A model generated the notes under the pieces. The model searched no databases, was not told the origin of the DNA, and saw only the letters and a program-made list of their open reading frames with translations. A stretch of DNA of 64,000 bases from Proteobacteria bacterium UBA6503 (GTDB lineage: Bacteria; Pseudomonadota; Alphaproteobacteria; UBA1280; UBA6503), in the NCBI GenBank assembly GCA_002436405.1, contig DJLZ01000005.1:265743-329742 (forward strand), written 5' to 3'. The position numbers were made by a program, and so were the translations under genes. Positions within the stretch are counted from its first letter, which is position 1; every line of letters begins with the position of its first letter. Positions 2,188 to 28,350 of the stretch are shown here, in pieces.

Positions 2188-3126
2188 TTAAAAGCTAAAG
2201 CTTACCTGATAACCATAATGGTCAGTGTCAGGCGCGCGCAAAGCACTGGCTTTATGCACAGTTGCCTTTTGGGGCAACAGCACAAAGTCAAACGGTGCTA
2301 CGGGCAGCAGCTTAAGGCGTACGCCCAAAAGGCGGAACTCAGCCGGCAAGGTTGCTTTGGGCAACGATGCGAGCTTCAAACCTTGAGCTTTGCTCACTTT
2401 GCGCACATGAACATCCCACGGCACGTTGTTAAAGTCGCCGCCAACCACAATGGGGTAGGGCGTCTTCACATCGCAAATCAGGTCCGTAATCGCATTGCGC
2501 TTATCGGTCCGTTGCGGCGTAAACGGCGCATGAGGGTGCAAGTGAACAAAATGGAAGGTACCATTCGGGTGGTAAACCTCGTAGTGCACCATGCGCCCAT
2601 TGGCATCAGTCTTCACGTGCTTTAGCGGCACTTTTGACAATATAGCCATGCTATAACCCAACACACTGTCGGTAATGCGAACCACATATTGGTGCGGGTA
2701 CATACTTTTCAGCTGTGCAAAGGCCTTGCGCATTTTGTTGTTCACTTCACAAAGGGCGAGAACATCGGCCTTTTGCTTTTTCAGAAAATTCACCTGTGCG
2801 GTCACGTCTTTATTGTAGGTATAGACGTTCAGCAACAGCATATTGATGTTTGGCTTGTTGTTGGGGTTTCCTTTGGGCTTTTCAGCATTCACGAAAACCT
2901 TAAAAGCAGGCCAATGTTTTGCCAAGGGGGCAAGTTTACGGCGCCATTTGGGCTGATGGATACCAGCTTTATAGAGGCACATAAACAAAATACCACGCCA
3001 CGGCGTCATAAGGGCGATTGCGGTGAACAGCAGTAGCCAATAGGGCGAACCTGGCAGCGAGAGCACAAGGCCCAGCAACCAGATAACTGCGCAAACCAAC
3101 GACACACCCAAGCGGATGTAGTGCAT
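2188..3126 (-). CDS. Endonuclease/exonuclease/phosphatase (EEP) family protein with N-terminal TM helices
   Basis: 312 aa with a hydrophobic N-terminus. The C-terminal half has an EEP-like pattern (GGDFN, histidine-rich catalytic region). Confidence 0.5.
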   Translation of the reverse strand: MHYIRLGVSLVCAVIWLLGLVLSLPGSPYWLLLFTAIALMTPWRGILFMCLYKAGIHQPKWRRKLAPLAKHWPAFKVFVNAEKPKGNPNNKPNINMLLLNVYTYNKDVTAQVNFLKKQKADVLALCEVNNKMRKAFAQLKSMYPHQYVVRITDSVLGYSMAILSKVPLKHVKTDANGRMVHYEVYHPNGTFHFVHLHPHAPFTPQRTDKRNAITDLICDVKTPYPIVVGGDFNNVPWDVHVRKVSKAQGLKLASLPKATLPAEFRLLGVRLKLLPVAPFDFVLLPQKATVHKASALRAPDTDHYGYQVSFSF

Positions 3127-3369
3127 AGTTTCACCTTAGGTTAGAGGGAAAGAAAGAAAAGGATATAAGATAGTTGCTTTAAGCCTGAGGATACCTGAAT
3201 CCATGTTAAAGCCCAAGCCTAATCCCGAACATAAATAAAAAATCTTTTAGAATCACGAGCTTGTAAATACAAAGAAAATTAAAAAAAATGCAAAAAAATC
3301 AATTTTTTCCTTTGAAGTAGCGTAAAAACTACCTATCTTTAAAAGTACGAGAAATCTTTTCCGTAACAT

Positions 3370-3417
3370 CTTACTTTCTTTTTCCCTTTTCTTTTTTTTC
3401 CTCCAAGGAGAATACCT
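3370..3417 (+). promoter_or_regulatory. Polypyrimidine (CT-rich) 5' leader with AAGGAG RBS in front of the ClpP-fold gene
   Basis: The sequence cttactttctttttcccttttcttttttttcctccAAGGAG lies 7 nt upstream of the ATG at 3418. A near-identical architecture recurs at 4717-4773. Confidence 0.4.
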
Positions 3418-4524
3418 ATGTTTACTGATAACCTCCCGCAGCCGACGACGCTGGAAGAGGCCGAGAAGGCATTCACCGATGCGGTGAACGCTTACCACAT
3501 CACCATTCCCGATGATTCGCATGGTGGCCGTGGCTTCGCTCTTCCCTCGATCATGTTCAAGCACCGCATCCTGTACCTGCACGGTCCTGTTACCCAGGAA
3601 GCCGTTCAGGCGCTCTGCATGCAGCTGCACTACCTGTGCAGTGAACCGGTGCTCAAGCAGCCGAACCGTTCGCGTCGCATCACGCTGTACGTGAACAGCC
3701 CTGGTGGTCTGGTGGGTGAGGGTCTGACCCTTTTCTACTACCTCCGTCAGGCGGAAGAAATCACCCGTGAACCGGTCGCCACCGTCATCCAGACGATGGG
3801 CGCCTCCATGGGTTCGTTCCTCCCGCAGGCGGCTACGCCTGGTTACCGGCTGATGATGCCGTATTCGCAGATGATGATTCACTCGCTCTCGTACGGTGTA
3901 CAGGGCAAGCGTGAAGATCACACTCGTAGTGTGGGCCAGACCCGCAATATGATGGCTGCGATGTACGAAGTCTACGTCGACAAGATGGCTGAAGCGCGCG
4001 TGCTCTTCGGCGGCAAGGAAGACACCCCGGAACTCCGTGGTGAAATCCTTCGCTGGCTGTTCGAGCAGATGGAAGACGACGATGTTTTCATGTCGCCTCT
4101 CCAGACGCTCGATGCCGATCTGACCGACTTCGTCGTGCACTCCGAGGCCGAGCAGTTCGAGTACTACAAGGCACTCGACTGGTACCACGGTCTGTACAAG
4201 GAAGGCCCGAATCCGGAAGAACCCGGCAAGACGACCCTGATTCGTGCGGAAGCCGATCAGCAGTCTGGCCGTGTGACGCCGTTCGAGCTCAGCGATGCTG
4301 AGAAGGCCCGTGCCCTCGCCGAGATCAAGCGCTTGCGCAAGATCAACCGTGAGAAGACGGTCGCTTTCGAAGGTCGCCGTGCACCGATCGAAGCTGCTCT
4401 GGCTGCTCTCGATACGGTTCGTATCCAGGAAGGCACCGGCACCCGTAAGGGTAACGGTCCGGCCTATGATACGGCTATCGAAGCGTTCGAAGCCGCTCTG
4501 AAGGGTTCGTCCAAGAAGAGCTAA
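3418..4524 (+). CDS. ClpP-fold (S14-like) serine peptidase with about 170-aa C-terminal coiled/acidic extension; compositionally foreign
   Basis: The ClpP core is recognisable: LYVNSPGG..GL (compare INSPGG), a GASMGSF serine motif, and a MMIHSLS histidine motif. The CDS is GC-rich with CTG/CCG/CGT/ACC/ATC-biased codons, unlike the flanking genes. Confidence 0.6.
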   Translation: MFTDNLPQPTTLEEAEKAFTDAVNAYHITIPDDSHGGRGFALPSIMFKHRILYLHGPVTQEAVQALCMQLHYLCSEPVLKQPNRSRRITLYVNSPGGLVGEGLTLFYYLRQAEEITREPVATVIQTMGASMGSFLPQAATPGYRLMMPYSQMMIHSLSYGVQGKREDHTRSVGQTRNMMAAMYEVYVDKMAEARVLFGGKEDTPELRGEILRWLFEQMEDDDVFMSPLQTLDADLTDFVVHSEAEQFEYYKALDWYHGLYKEGPNPEEPGKTTLIRAEADQQSGRVTPFELSDAEKARALAEIKRLRKINREKTVAFEGRRAPIEAALAALDTVRIQEGTGTRKGNGPAYDTAIEAFEAALKGSSKKS

Positions 4525-4538
4525 TAGCGAAAACGGAA

Positions 4539-4569
4539 AGCCGCCCCATTAGGGGCGGCTTTCTTTTTG
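4539..4569 (+). terminator. Rho-independent terminator after the ClpP-fold gene
   Basis: agccgcccc-atta-ggggcggct followed by ttctttttg. Confidence 0.6.
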
Positions 4570-4716
4570 CCTAAATAGGGGGGATTTAAAGGGCTTAACC
4601 TAGTGCGGCATATGCATGGATTTTCGGAATAAATATCGAATTTAATTAAAGTTTTAGCCCAAAAAGGCTTGGTCAATTGGCTTGATTTGGGGTAATGTGT
4701 ATACCAATTGTGTAGA

Positions 4717-4773
4717 TTTTCTTCTTTTTCTTTTTTTCTTTCCTCTTTTTACTTACATGCCTAGGAGTTTCTT
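4717..4773 (+). promoter_or_regulatory. Second polypyrimidine leader with TAGGAG RBS in front of the acidic/vWA gene
   Basis: ttttcttctttttctttttttctttcctctttttacttacatgccTAGGAG, then ATG at 4774. Confidence 0.4.
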
Positions 4774-6564
4774 ATGGCAAATCCCAATCAAGAGGCACTG
4801 AACCAGGTGCGTGCGCTTTTGCGTGCGTATGTTCGGTTTGGCGCCAGTATCATGGTCGACACCGAAGGTGTCGTTCCTGCTGAACTGTACCTTGTGTTGC
4901 AGCAGGTCCTGGGTATCGAACCCGGCCAGCCGCTTCCCAAGGAAATCATGGACGTGCTTCATGCACACGCCAAGTCGCTTGCTCAAGTTGAGTCAAGCCT
5001 TTCCGAAATGGAACGCAAAGAGCTTGAAGCTTTCTGGAACCGCCTGAAGGCGGCCAAAAACCAGAAGCAGCTCGAAGCCGCCGAAGATACGAAAGCCGAT
5101 ATGAGCCCCAATGCTCAGAAGGCTGTCGATCTGCAGCGTCGTCTGCGCCAGAGCATTGCAACGCAATTGCTTGATGCGTGGAAGGCGAAGAATGATCCTG
5201 AAGAGTCCGAAGAGGACCAGCAGGACGAAGGCGGTGATGACGATCAGCACTCCGATGCTCAGGACATGGACGAACCCTCTGAAGACGAAGCCGACGGCCA
5301 AGATGGCGAAGGCGACGACGAAGGGGACGACAAGTCTGACGGCTCCGGCGGCGGCGAAGGTGATGACGATGGCGAAAGCGATGGTCAGGGCCAGGACGGC
5401 GACGGTGAAGGTGAACCTGGCGAAGGTCAGGGGCAACCCGGAGATGGCAAAGGCCAGCCCAGCGATGGGAAGGGTCAGCCTGGTGATGGCAAAGGCGAAC
5501 CTGGCGAAGGCCAAGGTGAAGCCGGCAAGGGTGAAGGTCAGGGGCAGCCCTCCGATGGTGAATACCAGGAGAGCAACGCTGCCGAAGACAAACAGCCCGG
5601 CCATGACGAATGGATGGAACAGCTCCAGAAGGAGCTGGAAGAGCAGGCGCAAGCCGAAGCTGAAGCCGAGGCTGAAGCCGAAGGTGAAGGCGACGGTGAC
5701 GGCGAAGGCGATGGTGAAGGCGATGGTAAGGGTGAAACCGATACCACCGACCCCAACCGTAGCAAGGATGTTGAAGGTGTCTTTGACCTTTCGAACCTTG
5801 TGCCCGACCCGGCAGACGTCAACGCTGCAAAGCAGGCTCTGTCTCGGATGATTGCAAAGGGTCTCGATAACCCCACGCAGCTTCCGCGCTGGAAACTTGG
5901 CGAGTTCGTCAAGCGCCAGACCACGCTTCGTAACCTGAAGGGTGCAAAAAAGCCTACGCTGGAACGGAAAGCGGTGATGTTCATCATCGATAACTCGCCC
6001 AGTATGGCTCACTTGCAGGCTCAGTCGCGCGCCCTTGCGGCCGCACTGTCCGCCACCGGTGGTCCCGCAGGGGCCGACGTTGTGGTTGCCCTCAGCTTTA
6101 ACGGTCACTACAGCGACTCCAAGCCCCTGACTGAGAAAAATCAGGATGGTGCGTGGTTCCTTAACGGGAAGCTGATGGGGCAGTTGCCGAAGCCCAGTAA
6201 GTCCAGCGGTGTTGATGAAAAACACCATGGTAACTGCTGGAAGTGGTTCATCCAAAAAGTCTTGCCCAAGTACAAGGTGAATGTCCATCTGATCGGCATT
6301 TACGGCGACTACGACGGGACCAAGGAATGGTGCTACATCTCGAACGAGATGAAAGGCATTCAGACCCTCTGGTTTAACCCGGAAAACAAGGAGCTGGAAG
6401 GCGTTCTCGAACGCAAAAACCCCAACTTCTCTGAACGTTTGGGTTCCAGCTACGGTTACGTCAAAGGTGACCGTCGCTTTGAGCTTTTCCGAGGCACGTT
6501 CTTCACGCAAGTGGATACTGTCCAGGATATTGCCCAGGCCCTTCGTAAGGTCGCAGGCGTATAA
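4774..6564 (+). CDS. Large acidic low-complexity protein with C-terminal vWA-like domain; compositionally foreign
   Basis: 596 aa. The N-terminus is helical, residues about 140-330 are D/E/G-rich heptad-like repeats (DGKGQPG units, EAEAEA, GDGEGD), and the C-terminal block VMFIIDNSPSM (DxSxS MIDAS-like) ... VVVALSF ... VHLIGIYGD fits a vWA fold. GC and codon usage match the upstream ClpP-fold gene. Confidence 0.5.
   Translation: MANPNQEALNQVRALLRAYVRFGASIMVDTEGVVPAELYLVLQQVLGIEPGQPLPKEIMDVLHAHAKSLAQVESSLSEMERKELEAFWNRLKAAKNQKQLEAAEDTKADMSPNAQKAVDLQRRLRQSIATQLLDAWKAKNDPEESEEDQQDEGGDDDQHSDAQDMDEPSEDEADGQDGEGDDEGDDKSDGSGGGEGDDDGESDGQGQDGDGEGEPGEGQGQPGDGKGQPSDGKGQPGDGKGEPGEGQGEAGKGEGQGQPSDGEYQESNAAEDKQPGHDEWMEQLQKELEEQAQAEAEAEAEAEGEGDGDGEGDGEGDGKGETDTTDPNRSKDVEGVFDLSNLVPDPADVNAAKQALSRMIAKGLDNPTQLPRWKLGEFVKRQTTLRNLKGAKKPTLERKAVMFIIDNSPSMAHLQAQSRALAAALSATGGPAGADVVVALSFNGHYSDSKPLTEKNQDGAWFLNGKLMGQLPKPSKSSGVDEKHHGNCWKWFIQKVLPKYKVNVHLIGIYGDYDGTKEWCYISNEMKGIQTLWFNPENKELEGVLERKNPNFSERLGSSYGYVKGDRRFELFRGTFFTQVDTVQDIAQALRKVAGV
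5408..5563 (+). repeat. Imperfect 21-bp tandem repeats encoding DGKGQPG-type heptads
   Basis: cagcccagcgatgggaagggt / cagcctggtgatggcaaaggc / gaacctggcgaaggccaaggt and related units in tandem. Confidence 0.6.
5653..5736 (+). repeat. 6-bp tandem repeats (gccgaa/gctgaa then ggYgaM) encoding (EA)n and (GD/GE)n
   Basis: Direct reading of the sequence. Confidence 0.6.
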
Positions 6565-6579
6565 ACCATTAACGACTAA

Positions 6580-6607
6580 GGCCCCCAGCAATGGGGGCCT
6601 TTTTTTG
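6580..6607 (+). terminator. Rho-independent terminator after the acidic/vWA gene
   Basis: ggccccc-agcaat-gggggcc followed by tttttttg. Confidence 0.6.
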
Positions 6608-6719: not shown

Positions 6720-6795
6720 GCGGGTGTAGCTCAGTTGGTAGAGCGCAACCTTGCCATGGTTGAGGTCGAGAGTTCGAGTCTCTTCACCCGCTCCA
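6720..6795 (+). tRNA. tRNA-Gly (anticodon GCC)
   Basis: GCGGGTG acceptor stem with CACCCGC-T-CCA at the 3' end. The anticodon stem-loop caacc-TTGCCAT-ggttg gives anticodon GCC. The T arm has GTTCGAGTC. Confidence 0.9.
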
Positions 6796-6800
6796 AATAA

Positions 6801-6836
6801 AAGCCCTTTGCTTAGCAGAGGGCTTTTATTTTTGCC
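6801..6836 (+). terminator. Terminator downstream of tRNA-Gly
   Basis: aaagccctttgc-ttag-cagagggcttt followed by tattttt. Confidence 0.5.
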
Positions 6837-27344: not shown

Positions 27345-27554
27345 ATGTTTGATATTGGTCTCACCGAAGTTGCGTTAATCTTGCTCGTGGCAATTTTTGC
27401 CATCGGGCCTGAACGCATGCCTGAGGTTGCTCGTTTTTTGGTTAAAGCCAAGCGCATGCTAAACAAACTTACCCTTGATGTTAAAAGCCTTTGGGACGGT
27501 ATTGACCTGCCTGAAGACAACGTAAAAGACGTTAAGCATGACAGCAAAAAATAA
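27345..27554 (+). CDS. tatB: TatB (short form)
   Basis: 69 aa MFDIGLTEVALILLVAIFAIGPERMPE. It is the second TatA-family gene directly before tatC. Confidence 0.7.
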   Translation: MFDIGLTEVALILLVAIFAIGPERMPEVARFLVKAKRMLNKLTLDVKSLWDGIDLPEDNVKDVKHDSKK

Positions 27555-28350
27555 AACCCAAACCTCAGCAAAGCCTATTCAGGATGCCACGCAAGATACG
27601 GCACCTTTGGTTGAACACTTAAAAGAGCTGCGCACCCGCCTGATGATTGGCATTGGCGCCGTATTCGTAGGGTTTTTGGTGTGCTATGGCTTTAAGGAGG
27701 CTTTGTTTGTTTGGCTTACGGCACCGCTGTTTGAAAACTATGGCCATCAAATGGTGTTTACCGCACCGCACGAACTTTTCTTTACATACCTTAAGCTTTG
27801 TTTCCTTGGTGGGTTCTTTATTGGGATGCCATTCTTATTTGATCAAATCTGGCGTTTTGTGGCCCCGGGTCTGTACGCTGAAGAAAAGAAGGTTGTTCTA
27901 CCATTCTTACTAGCCACTCCAATTTTGTTTTACGCAGGTGGCTTGTTTTCATACTTCGTTATTATGCCGCTGGCGATTGAGTTCTTTTTTGGTTTTGCAA
28001 ACGAAGCCATTATGCCGCTGCCTTCAGCGCGTGAGTACTTAAGCTTTTTCATTAAGCTAACCTTTGGTTTTGGCTTGGCGTTTGAGTTGCCAGTTCTACT
28101 GCTTATCTTAGCCAAAGTAGGGCTTGTGAATGCTGACCGTTTGGTGTGGTTCCGCCGTTATAGCTGGTTGTGTATTCTTATCCTATCTGCGGTGCTGACA
28201 CCGCCTGATCCATTGTCGCAAGTGCTATTGGCACTGCCGATGGTCTTCCTTTACGAGGTTTCAATCTTCCTTATTCGCCGCAGTGAAAAGAAAAGCGAGA
28301 AGAAGGGCGAAAAGAAAGCCTCTAAAGCTTCTTCTAAATCATCCAAATAA
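27538..28350 (+). CDS. tatC: TatC
   Basis: 270 aa with a 6-TM TatC pattern and a lysine-rich C-terminal tail. Confidence 0.85.
   Translation: MTAKNKTQTSAKPIQDATQDTAPLVEHLKELRTRLMIGIGAVFVGFLVCYGFKEALFVWLTAPLFENYGHQMVFTAPHELFFTYLKLCFLGGFFIGMPFLFDQIWRFVAPGLYAEEKKVVLPFLLATPILFYAGGLFSYFVIMPLAIEFFFGFANEAIMPLPSAREYLSFFIKLTFGFGLAFELPVLLLILAKVGLVNADRLVWFRRYSWLCILILSAVLTPPDPLSQVLLALPMVFLYEVSIFLIRRSEKKSEKKGEKKASKASSKSSK

Follow-up and report, generated by a model that had tools for sequence, protein, structure and literature searches.

S1-dependent enhancers rich in pyrimidines or U were reportedly described by Boni and co-workers in 1991 and 2001, with the thrS and manY leaders as examples, and the idea of ribosome standby is said to stem from a model by de Smit and van Duin. 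In one preprint, pyrimidine-rich sequences immediately upstream of the Shine-Dalgarno (SD) sequence are presented as known S1-binding translational enhancers (bioRxiv 10.1101/808485). Unstructured 5' tails were found to override structured ribosome-binding sites (RBSs) by ribosome standby, an effect that saturates at 16-18 nucleotides (nt) (Sterk et al. 2018, PMC5934652), and the 5' untranslated region (UTR) of E. coli cfa carries a CU-rich Rho utilization (rut) element (PMC12691595). In a 64-kb stretch of DNA from Proteobacteria bacterium UBA6503 (the window), near-pure polypyrimidine (CT) tracts were found directly ahead of the SD of three neighboring genes, which encode a ClpP-like serine protease paralogue, a protein resembling VWA domains, and an endonuclease/exonuclease/phosphatase (EEP) family protein. 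The reading favored here, at a probability of roughly 0.45, is that these tracts form unstructured pyrimidine 5' UTRs that recruit the 30S subunit through ribosomal protein bS1 or as a standby site.

The tracts share features with each of these systems and depart from each. As in the cfa rut element, a CU-rich, G-poor tract is placed in a 5' UTR; the cfa tract, however, has 16 nt within a long 5' UTR, where a stem-loop and small RNAs gate it (PMC12691595), whereas the tracts here abut strong SD sequences and are T-rich rather than C-rich. As in the standby tails, an unstructured stretch is located upstream of the RBS, and at the VWA-like gene and its orthologue a hairpin predicted to sequester SD and AUG lies downstream of it. 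Unlike that system, in which the tested tails were CA or AU repeats (PMC5934652), the ClpP-like and EEP genes lack a clearly structured RBS. The likeness to the S1-dependent enhancers lies in a single-stranded pyrimidine-rich stretch directly 5' of the SD, in which composition prevails over exact sequence. The tracts here are much longer (21-47 nt), almost purine-free, and composed of C as well as U; their leader is conserved as a class across a lineage, with S1 as its presumed ligand.

Tract 1, ahead of the ClpP-like gene, occupies 3369-3404 on the plus strand, with 35 of its 36 positions C or T and an end in CCTCC. From 3370 to 3404 it reads cttactttctttttcccttttcttttttttcctcc, with a T8 run at 3392-3399, and it is followed by the SD AAGGAG (3405-3410) and the ATG start codon (3418-3420). 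Tract 2, ahead of the VWA-like gene, occupies 4717-4750 on the plus strand, is pyrimidine at all 34 positions with a T7 run at 4731-4737, and continues as acttac to 4756. An ATG at 4757-4759 intervenes between it and cctAGGAG, in which the SD is located at 4763-4767, and the start codon begins at 4774. The original prediction was built on these two tracts, and its letters, the coordinates of tract 1 and the T8 and T7 runs are exact, but its second string, of 40 nt, ends at 4756 and not at 4757. It also held that no similar tract precedes any other gene of the window, which is incorrect. The minus-strand EEP gene (2188-3126), divergent from the ClpP-like gene, is preceded by tract 3 (3163-3143, minus strand), which reads tccttttctttctttccctct and is pyrimidine at 21 of 21 positions (28 of 31 over 3143-3173). 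It ends 5 nt upstream of the SD AAGGTG (3137-3132), with the ATG at 3126-3124.

Tracts 1 and 2 are real and far above chance expectation. With a maximal pyrimidine segment score of +1 per C or T and -3 per A or G, they score 32 (3369-3404) and 34 (4717-4750), and no segment scored above 25 in 200 first-order Markov simulations of the window. A repeat finder independently recovered both as one family (D4) and paired tract 3 with each of them (inverted-repeat pairs I1 and I3). Across the 56 gene-sized open reading frames (ORFs), the best 25-nt pyrimidine fraction in the 70 nt upstream is 0.92-1.00 for the three genes and at most 0.80 for all others; segment scores within 100 nt upstream are 21-34 for the three and at most 10 for the other 53. 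The CT leaders are confined to these 3 of the 56 genes. Each of the three tracts is sense-oriented and separates a predicted promoter from a strong SD, which stands 5-12 nt before the AUG. The existence, strand and position of the tracts are thereby established. The only other long pyrimidine segment of the window (28285-28318, score 26) is antisense within the 3' end of tatC (27538-28350) and reflects a Lys/Glu-rich coding stretch, not a leader.

Six orthologues of the ClpP-like gene were recovered, all with a pyrimidine-rich leader at the same place. At protein identities of 72% (L020), 66% (L022), 66% (L030) and 49% (L024), the tracts are 36-47 nt long and 94-97% pyrimidine, with 45/47, 34/36, 35/37 and 36/37 pyrimidines, respectively; at 46% (L026) and 42% (L031) the leader is pyrimidine-rich and interrupted. 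Inside the tracts the sequences resist detailed alignment, and the longest T run has anywhere from 4 to 8 bases, depending on the orthologue. The EEP orthologues in L020 and L026 also have CT leaders, that of L026 with 33 pyrimidines in 34 nt reaching right to the ATG. In the related genome 'Alphaproteobacteria bacterium OFTM141', the layout of tract, SD and ATG was observed at the VWA orthologue, its AAA_5 partner, a lipoprotein gene and a gene for a hypothetical protein of 184 amino acids (aa). Besides the third gene of the window, 13 further leaders were found in related loci, 10 of them orthologous and 3 before unrelated genes. The leader-type tracts found are without exception sense-oriented and stop 0-37 nt short of the start codon, most of them directly beside the SD; in the divergent EEP/ClpP-like pair, the tracts lie on opposite DNA strands, each sense for its own gene. 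When a sense-strand leader is defined as a tract that ends within 45 nt of a long ORF, tracts scoring at least 18 are such leaders in 12 of 15 cases among the lineage loci, a sample biased towards ClpP-like loci, versus 1 of 11 in 211 kb of unrelated genomes (Fisher p = 0.001). The metagenome scan contributed just two useful ClpP-like orthologues, and a scan of genome contigs with the ClpP-like protein gave no match.

The conservation of the tracts is established by these comparisons, and it is proposed that selection acts on their composition and position, not on their exact sequence. Since the same leader type stands before unrelated genes in a related genome, it marks a lineage-level class and not an island. 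Judged from the sequences compared, the CT leader is a lineage-wide class in an uncultured marine alphaproteobacterial group, used by a subset of genes. The original prediction was right to see in the tracts a shared cis element of leaders; its restriction of that element to two island genes was too narrow, for a third adjacent gene and unrelated genes of a related genome share the leader type. The occurrence of the same tracts before many unrelated host genes, which that prediction had raised against itself, is seen in part at the level of the lineage.

A promoter of the ClpP-like gene is predicted at 3282-3339 on the plus strand, with an A-rich UP-like stretch, TTGAAG (3312-3317), a 16-nt spacer and TATCTT (3334-3339). 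The promoter-like block, CATTTTTTCCTTTGAA-N16-YTATCTTTA.AAGTACG with A-rich sequence upstream, is the most conserved non-coding block of the locus and is near-identical in four species (window 3282-3342; L020 about 2985-3050; L022 about 4865-4930; L030 about 830-895). Because the block lies upstream of tract 1, the predicted 5' UTR includes the tract. The constant sense orientation of the pyrimidine strand and the constant place of the tract beside the RBS argue for a role at the RNA level rather than in DNA structure. The block was not called by a strict sigma-70 scan. Its arrangement TTGAAg-N13-aCCTATCT is taken here to resemble sigma-32/RpoH consensus promoters, and if this likeness is true, the ClpP-like protease would be a heat-shock-type gene. 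Between the presumed transcription start site (TSS) and tract 1, a small 5'-proximal stem-loop (UACG-A-GAAA / UUUC-CGUA; 3346-3365, plus strand) is weakly predicted; L020 and L022 are each predicted to form a comparable hairpin, and the consensus structure does not contain the stem-loop. For the VWA-like gene, a weak candidate promoter, TTGGCT-N17-TATACC (4677-4705, plus strand), was identified by eye and was not reported by the strict scan. A check by eye for ECF sigma factor/NrsF promoter motifs near the tracts found nothing conserved. An intrinsic-terminator-like hairpin with a T run lies 3' of the ClpP-like gene (4535-4564, plus strand), and a terminator-like hairpin lies 3' of the VWA-like gene (6578-6601, plus strand). 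Since both plus-strand genes are followed by such hairpins, the EEP, ClpP-like and VWA-like genes are probably transcribed separately, as three units that each have a CT leader.

In the proposed mechanism, the tract would be the main body of the 5' untranslated leader of the EEP, ClpP-like and VWA-like genes. Transcription of each gene is predicted to begin between a few and about 25 nt ahead of the tract, and the transcript would then cross 21-36 nt of almost pure C/U before it reaches a strong SD, 5-12 nt before the AUG. Such a stretch cannot fold on itself because it has almost no purines, and it would offer a long single-stranded pyrimidine platform beside the ribosome-binding site. The 30S subunit may bind this platform through bS1, as it does pyrimidine/U-rich translational enhancers, or may use it as a standby site, so that translation initiation would be raised or secured; at the VWA-like gene, initiation would be secured despite a local hairpin that pairs SD and AUG.

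The predicted single-strandedness on which this mechanism depends is established for the leaders, which are 59-75 nt long. The tracts are unpaired in all minimum-free-energy (MFE) folds, with fold z-scores of -0.9 to +1.2, and positions -55 to -16 have a mean unpaired probability of 0.70-0.73 (ranks 5-10 of 56), compared with 0.51 as the median of the window. A consensus fold of four orthologues reaches -2.2 kcal/mol with essentially no covariation and shows no conserved structure. For an S1 enhancer or a standby site, the tracts are thus correctly positioned, on the sense strand upstream of the SD, with their ends 5-23 nt from the start codon, and downstream of a promoter-like block from which the TSS is inferred, and are single-stranded by prediction. 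Among the roles suggested in the original prediction, that of a translational enhancer or CT-rich standby site is plausible and fits best the position, the strand, the predicted single-strandedness and the cross-species conservation.

The VWA-like gene offers the closest parallel to standby. A hairpin pairing its SD AGGAG (4763-4767) with its AUG (4774-4776) is predicted at 4758-4779 on the plus strand (-7.9 kcal/mol), and a similar SD/AUG hairpin is predicted for the OFTM141 orthologue (L029; -9.3 kcal/mol); with z-scores of -1.3 and -1.8, these hairpins are suggestive only. Its RBS is predicted to be sequestered, with an unpaired probability of 0.23 (rank 55 of 56). On these models the gene would fit the standby picture well, although the hairpin z-scores are modest. 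For the ClpP-like and EEP genes, predicted RBS accessibility is just average (0.51 and 0.56), so there the tract would be read as a simple enhancer. Two small upstream frames occur in the VWA leader: a TTG-started, Phe/Ser-rich frame of 19 codons (4706-4765) stops at a TAG inside the SD, and the out-of-frame ATG at 4757 opens a 14-codon frame (4757-4801) that overlaps the main start. Both are probably fortuitous, and either could modulate initiation.

Several points weigh against recruitment of the ribosome by the tracts. The TSS positions in this organism are guesses. The average RBS accessibility of the ClpP-like and EEP genes leaves these two with no obvious need for a standby site. The S1 enhancers and standby tails characterized by experiment have an A/U- or CA-rich composition and a length of about 10-20 nt. 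A near-exclusive C/U composition over 35-45 nt exceeds what the model needs, which hints at a more specific reader. In the related genome, codon adaptation is not evident among the genes that carry a CT leader, so a link with very high expression is not established. If ribosome recruitment is nevertheless the function, the tracts would be an extreme natural example of a composition-defined translational enhancer, long, almost free of purines, and maintained between species with protein divergence above one half. They would provide a clean natural test of the S1 and standby models outside E. coli, in an uncultured marine lineage, and could furnish a portable unstructured leader for expression design.

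Rho could also be the ligand of such an RNA. The tract would then be a rut-like loading site that terminates the transcript early when ribosome loading at the SD is slow, so that transcription would depend on translation or on masking of the tract by some factor. The leaders are indeed G-poor (C/G about 2.4-2.6), hold 9-14 YC dimers and are predicted to be unstructured, and the CU-rich rut element of cfa provides a precedent (PMC12691595). This explanation is considered unlikely, since a typical rut site is about 80 nt long and C-rich, while the tracts are T-rich (T:C 1.6:1 to 4:1) and 21-47 nt long, and since a strong SD within 0-13 nt should usually let the ribosomes win.

A purity and length of the tract beyond the needs of simple unstructuredness, and the appearance of this leader type before unrelated genes of a related genome, would be accounted for by a dedicated RNA-binding protein for pyrimidine tracts, for instance one with a cold-shock domain or a paralogue resembling S1. 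Of 10 independent tracts, 9 contain the hexamer CTTTTC (uncorrected p = 0.001), and the organism comes from cold mesopelagic water, according to a Tara sample name. Bacterial CspB binds pyrimidine-rich single strands with high affinity and a consensus of GTCTTTG/T (PMC1904285). However, the CTTTTC enrichment is not significant once the post-hoc choice of the motif is corrected for (p = 0.22), the idea comes with no candidate binding protein in this organism, and the gene set has no evident common function; a reader of this kind is likewise held to be improbable. A specific sequence motif in the tracts was rejected on the same best-hexamer correction (p = 0.22). In its most far-reaching form, the idea becomes a lineage-specific post-transcriptional regulon, in which near-pure oligopyrimidine leaders of 20-45 nt would be read by a dedicated factor, possibly at a CUUUUC core and with coupling to cold or stress. 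Its members would be the ClpP-like protease, the EEP enzyme, the CobS/CobT-like AAA+/VWA pair and small envelope proteins. Both the regulon and this list of members are speculative and given only a slim chance. Eukaryotic 5' terminal oligopyrimidine (TOP) tracts and tracts of the polypyrimidine tract-binding protein (PTB) type have LARP1 and PTB as their readers. With these the present tracts share, by analogy only, a pyrimidine-only stretch at or near the mRNA 5' end that marks a subset of mRNAs; the translation machinery and the readers differ, and there is no homology. We know of no evidence for a bacterial counterpart of TOP/PTB control, of which such a regulon, if true, might be a functional analogue. 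Should either Rho or a specific factor read the tracts, a small new regulon would be defined.

At the level of DNA, the tracts may form H-DNA, serve as a nucleoid or regulator site or as a promoter-escape element, or be a neutral by-product of composition. Homopurine-homopyrimidine runs can adopt non-B DNA, and the EEP and ClpP-like tracts make up a 34-nt, 79% complementary inverted pair (I1) that flanks a 198-bp divergent promoter region. DNA structure alone, though, does not predict that the pyrimidine strand is always sense and the tract always beside the SD, and neutral drift would not keep 94-97% pyrimidine over 36-47 nt at 49-72% protein identity. The odds are therefore judged to lie heavily against this group of explanations.

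Pairing of the pyrimidines with the purine-rich SD, as in a fourU-type RNA thermometer or an anti-SD mimic, has a very low probability. In the window, UUUUCCU can pair with AGGAGAA over a 3-nt loop (-5 kcal/mol), and many tracts end in CCUC or CCUCC beside the SD. This pairing is weak (z = -0.75), is absent from the MFE folds of L022 and L024, is marginal in L020 and lost from its centroid structure, and the four-orthologue consensus fold (-2.2 kcal/mol, essentially without covariation) contains no conserved hairpin.

Least credible is the suggestion of the original prediction that slipped-strand mispairing in the T8 and T7 runs, acting as contingency tracts, makes expression phase-variable. 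Phase-variable promoters and genes with homopolymeric tracts are the contingency loci of Neisseria and Haemophilus, and the locus resembles them in its T7/T8 homopolymers and in one T7/T8 polymorphism, with T7 in leader 2 of the window, L001 and L002 versus T8 in L003-L007. The latter are five assemblies of one sequencing project (SRR275409xx) and represent a sister strain 99.2-99.7% identical to the window. Length variation was looked for across contigs, as had been advised, and this single difference in leader 2 was found to be fixed between strains whose other differences over 4-7 kb amount to 8-44 substitutions and 3-5 indels, with no sign of switching within a population. Unlike those of contingency loci, both runs fall between the predicted -10 and the SD, outside the coding sequence and the -35/-10 spacer, and gain or loss of a single base at such a position would not obviously switch expression on or off. 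All 9 contigs share the T8 of leader 1, and no long run is conserved in the orthologous tracts (longest T run 4 to 8). A Phe-rich leader-peptide attenuator was rejected, since leaders 1 and 3 have no ATG, GTG or TTG upstream of the SD and no terminator hairpin, although tract 1 read in frame would encode Phe-rich peptides; the Rfam Phe_leader matches are sub-threshold and located on the terminator at 4535-4564. A known RNA family was rejected as well, as no Rfam match falls on the tracts: in Rfam 15, tRNAs alone passed the gathering threshold, and nothing was found on the tracts at E-values up to 10.

The two plus-strand genes had been regarded as an island acquired or regulated as a unit. Their composition is atypical, as expected of a genomic island: GC content is 0.57-0.59 versus 0.475 for the window, GC content at third codon positions (GC3) is 0.62-0.71 versus at most 0.51 for window genes, and both genes are near a tRNA-Gly. 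The EEP gene, which is host-like, also has a GC3 of 0.60. Acquisition as a unit nevertheless finds no support. The ClpP-like family is tiny but syntenic. Its orthologues in L020 (72%) and L022 (66%) sit in the same fabF-yceG-gmk neighborhood, directly after gmk in L022 and separated from it by the divergent EEP gene in the window and L020, and the divergent EEP/ClpP-like pairing is kept in L020, in L026 (46% identity) and probably in L024. The GC3 of the ClpP-like gene is 0.71 in the window (3418-4524), 0.79 in L020 (3122-4222), 0.73 in L022 (5001-6131), 0.75 in L024 (1105-2226) and 0.95 in L026 (7183-8472), with neighbors at about 0.45-0.72, and it is the highest of the neighborhood in every locus. 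Since the gene is syntenic across relatives, it is not a recent acquisition, and since its GC3 is high in every carrier genome, its compositional oddity is old and maintained. The island reading is thereby corrected to an old, lineage-wide peculiarity with no sign of recent transfer.

Between the EEP gene and the tRNA-Gly there are just two genes, with no integrase and no att-like or flanking direct repeats, and no relatives were found in 2.9 million viral contigs. A phage origin was considered, as the ClpP-like protein matches phage head-maturation-protease PHROGs, and was rejected for want of relatives in viral contigs and of adjacent capsid genes. The reading of high GC3 as a mark of high expression likewise found no support: acpP (L022) has a GC3 of 0.36, and the housekeeping genes of the window, such as ssb, yajC and rpoZ, all have at most 0.51 and no CT leader. 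The VWA-like gene is patchy in distribution. Its one homologue outside the species is found in OFTM141, in a different context, which also speaks against joint acquisition; that protein has 322 aa and lacks the low-complexity region and the N-terminal domain.

The ClpP-like gene (3418-4524, plus strand) encodes 368 aa, with a PF00574 match at residues 41-189, visible GASMG serine and MIH histidine motifs, a C-terminal extension of about 180 aa, and a GC3 of 0.71. A canonical tig-clpP-clpX-lon cluster lies at 12431-16472 of L026, about 4 kb from the EEP/ClpP-like pair; the ClpP-like gene is therefore an extra paralogue that does not replace the housekeeping ClpP. The EEP protein has a hydrophobic N-terminus.

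The VWA-like gene (4774-6564, plus strand) encodes a protein of 596 aa whose N-terminus is helical and whose long middle part is of low complexity, acidic and Gly-rich; the C-terminal domain contains DxSxS. The protein has no Pfam match and is termed VWA/CobT-like by the motif DxSxS (IDNSPSM) alone, which resembles a metal-ion-dependent adhesion site; a search with this domain gave a single homologue and no relative of known structure. The acidic/Gly-rich region, with heptads of the type G-[EQK]-G-[QE]-P-[GS]-D, is encoded at 5281-5735 by tandem repeats of 21 nt, which are imperfect and present in six copies at 5377-5568, together with shorter GAx/GGx repeats. In OFTM141 (GCA_021774615.1, JAJFIW010000014.1; 6848-8969 of L029), the orthologue is second in a pair formed by an AAA_5 (CobS/MoxR-like) ATPase and a VWA protein, and the ATPase matches the phage 'porphyrin biosynthesis'/CobS-like family phrog_249 (3.7e-10), which suggests a two-component machine of the CobS/CobT or MoxR/VWA type. 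No partner ATPase gene was noticed in the window, where no search was aimed at one.

The window is ordinary alphaproteobacterial chromosomal DNA with yceG, gmk, valS, serS, secDF, uvrA, ssb, recG, mfd, smpB, rpoZ and spoT. Its first 9 kb, the part compared, is 100% identical to contig DBGZ01000003.1 of the marine metagenome-assembled genome GCA_002295585.1, whose proteins carry the NCBI label 'Magnetococcales bacterium', and matching sequence is also present in Tara Oceans mesopelagic samples. In L002 (GCA_002707865.1, PAOA01000019.1; 3035-4030 and 7357-9147), a second assembly that is 99.86% identical, yceG is called as two fragments and the VWA-like gene is not called at all, despite the lack of indels relative to the window; these broken calls point to stops made by point mutations or assembly errors. 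A tRNA-Gly(GCC) is located at 6720-6795, downstream of the VWA-like gene and its terminator-like hairpin. Directly 3' of it, an 18-nt, 94% complementary hairpin at 6795-6831 is probably the terminator of the tRNA transcript.

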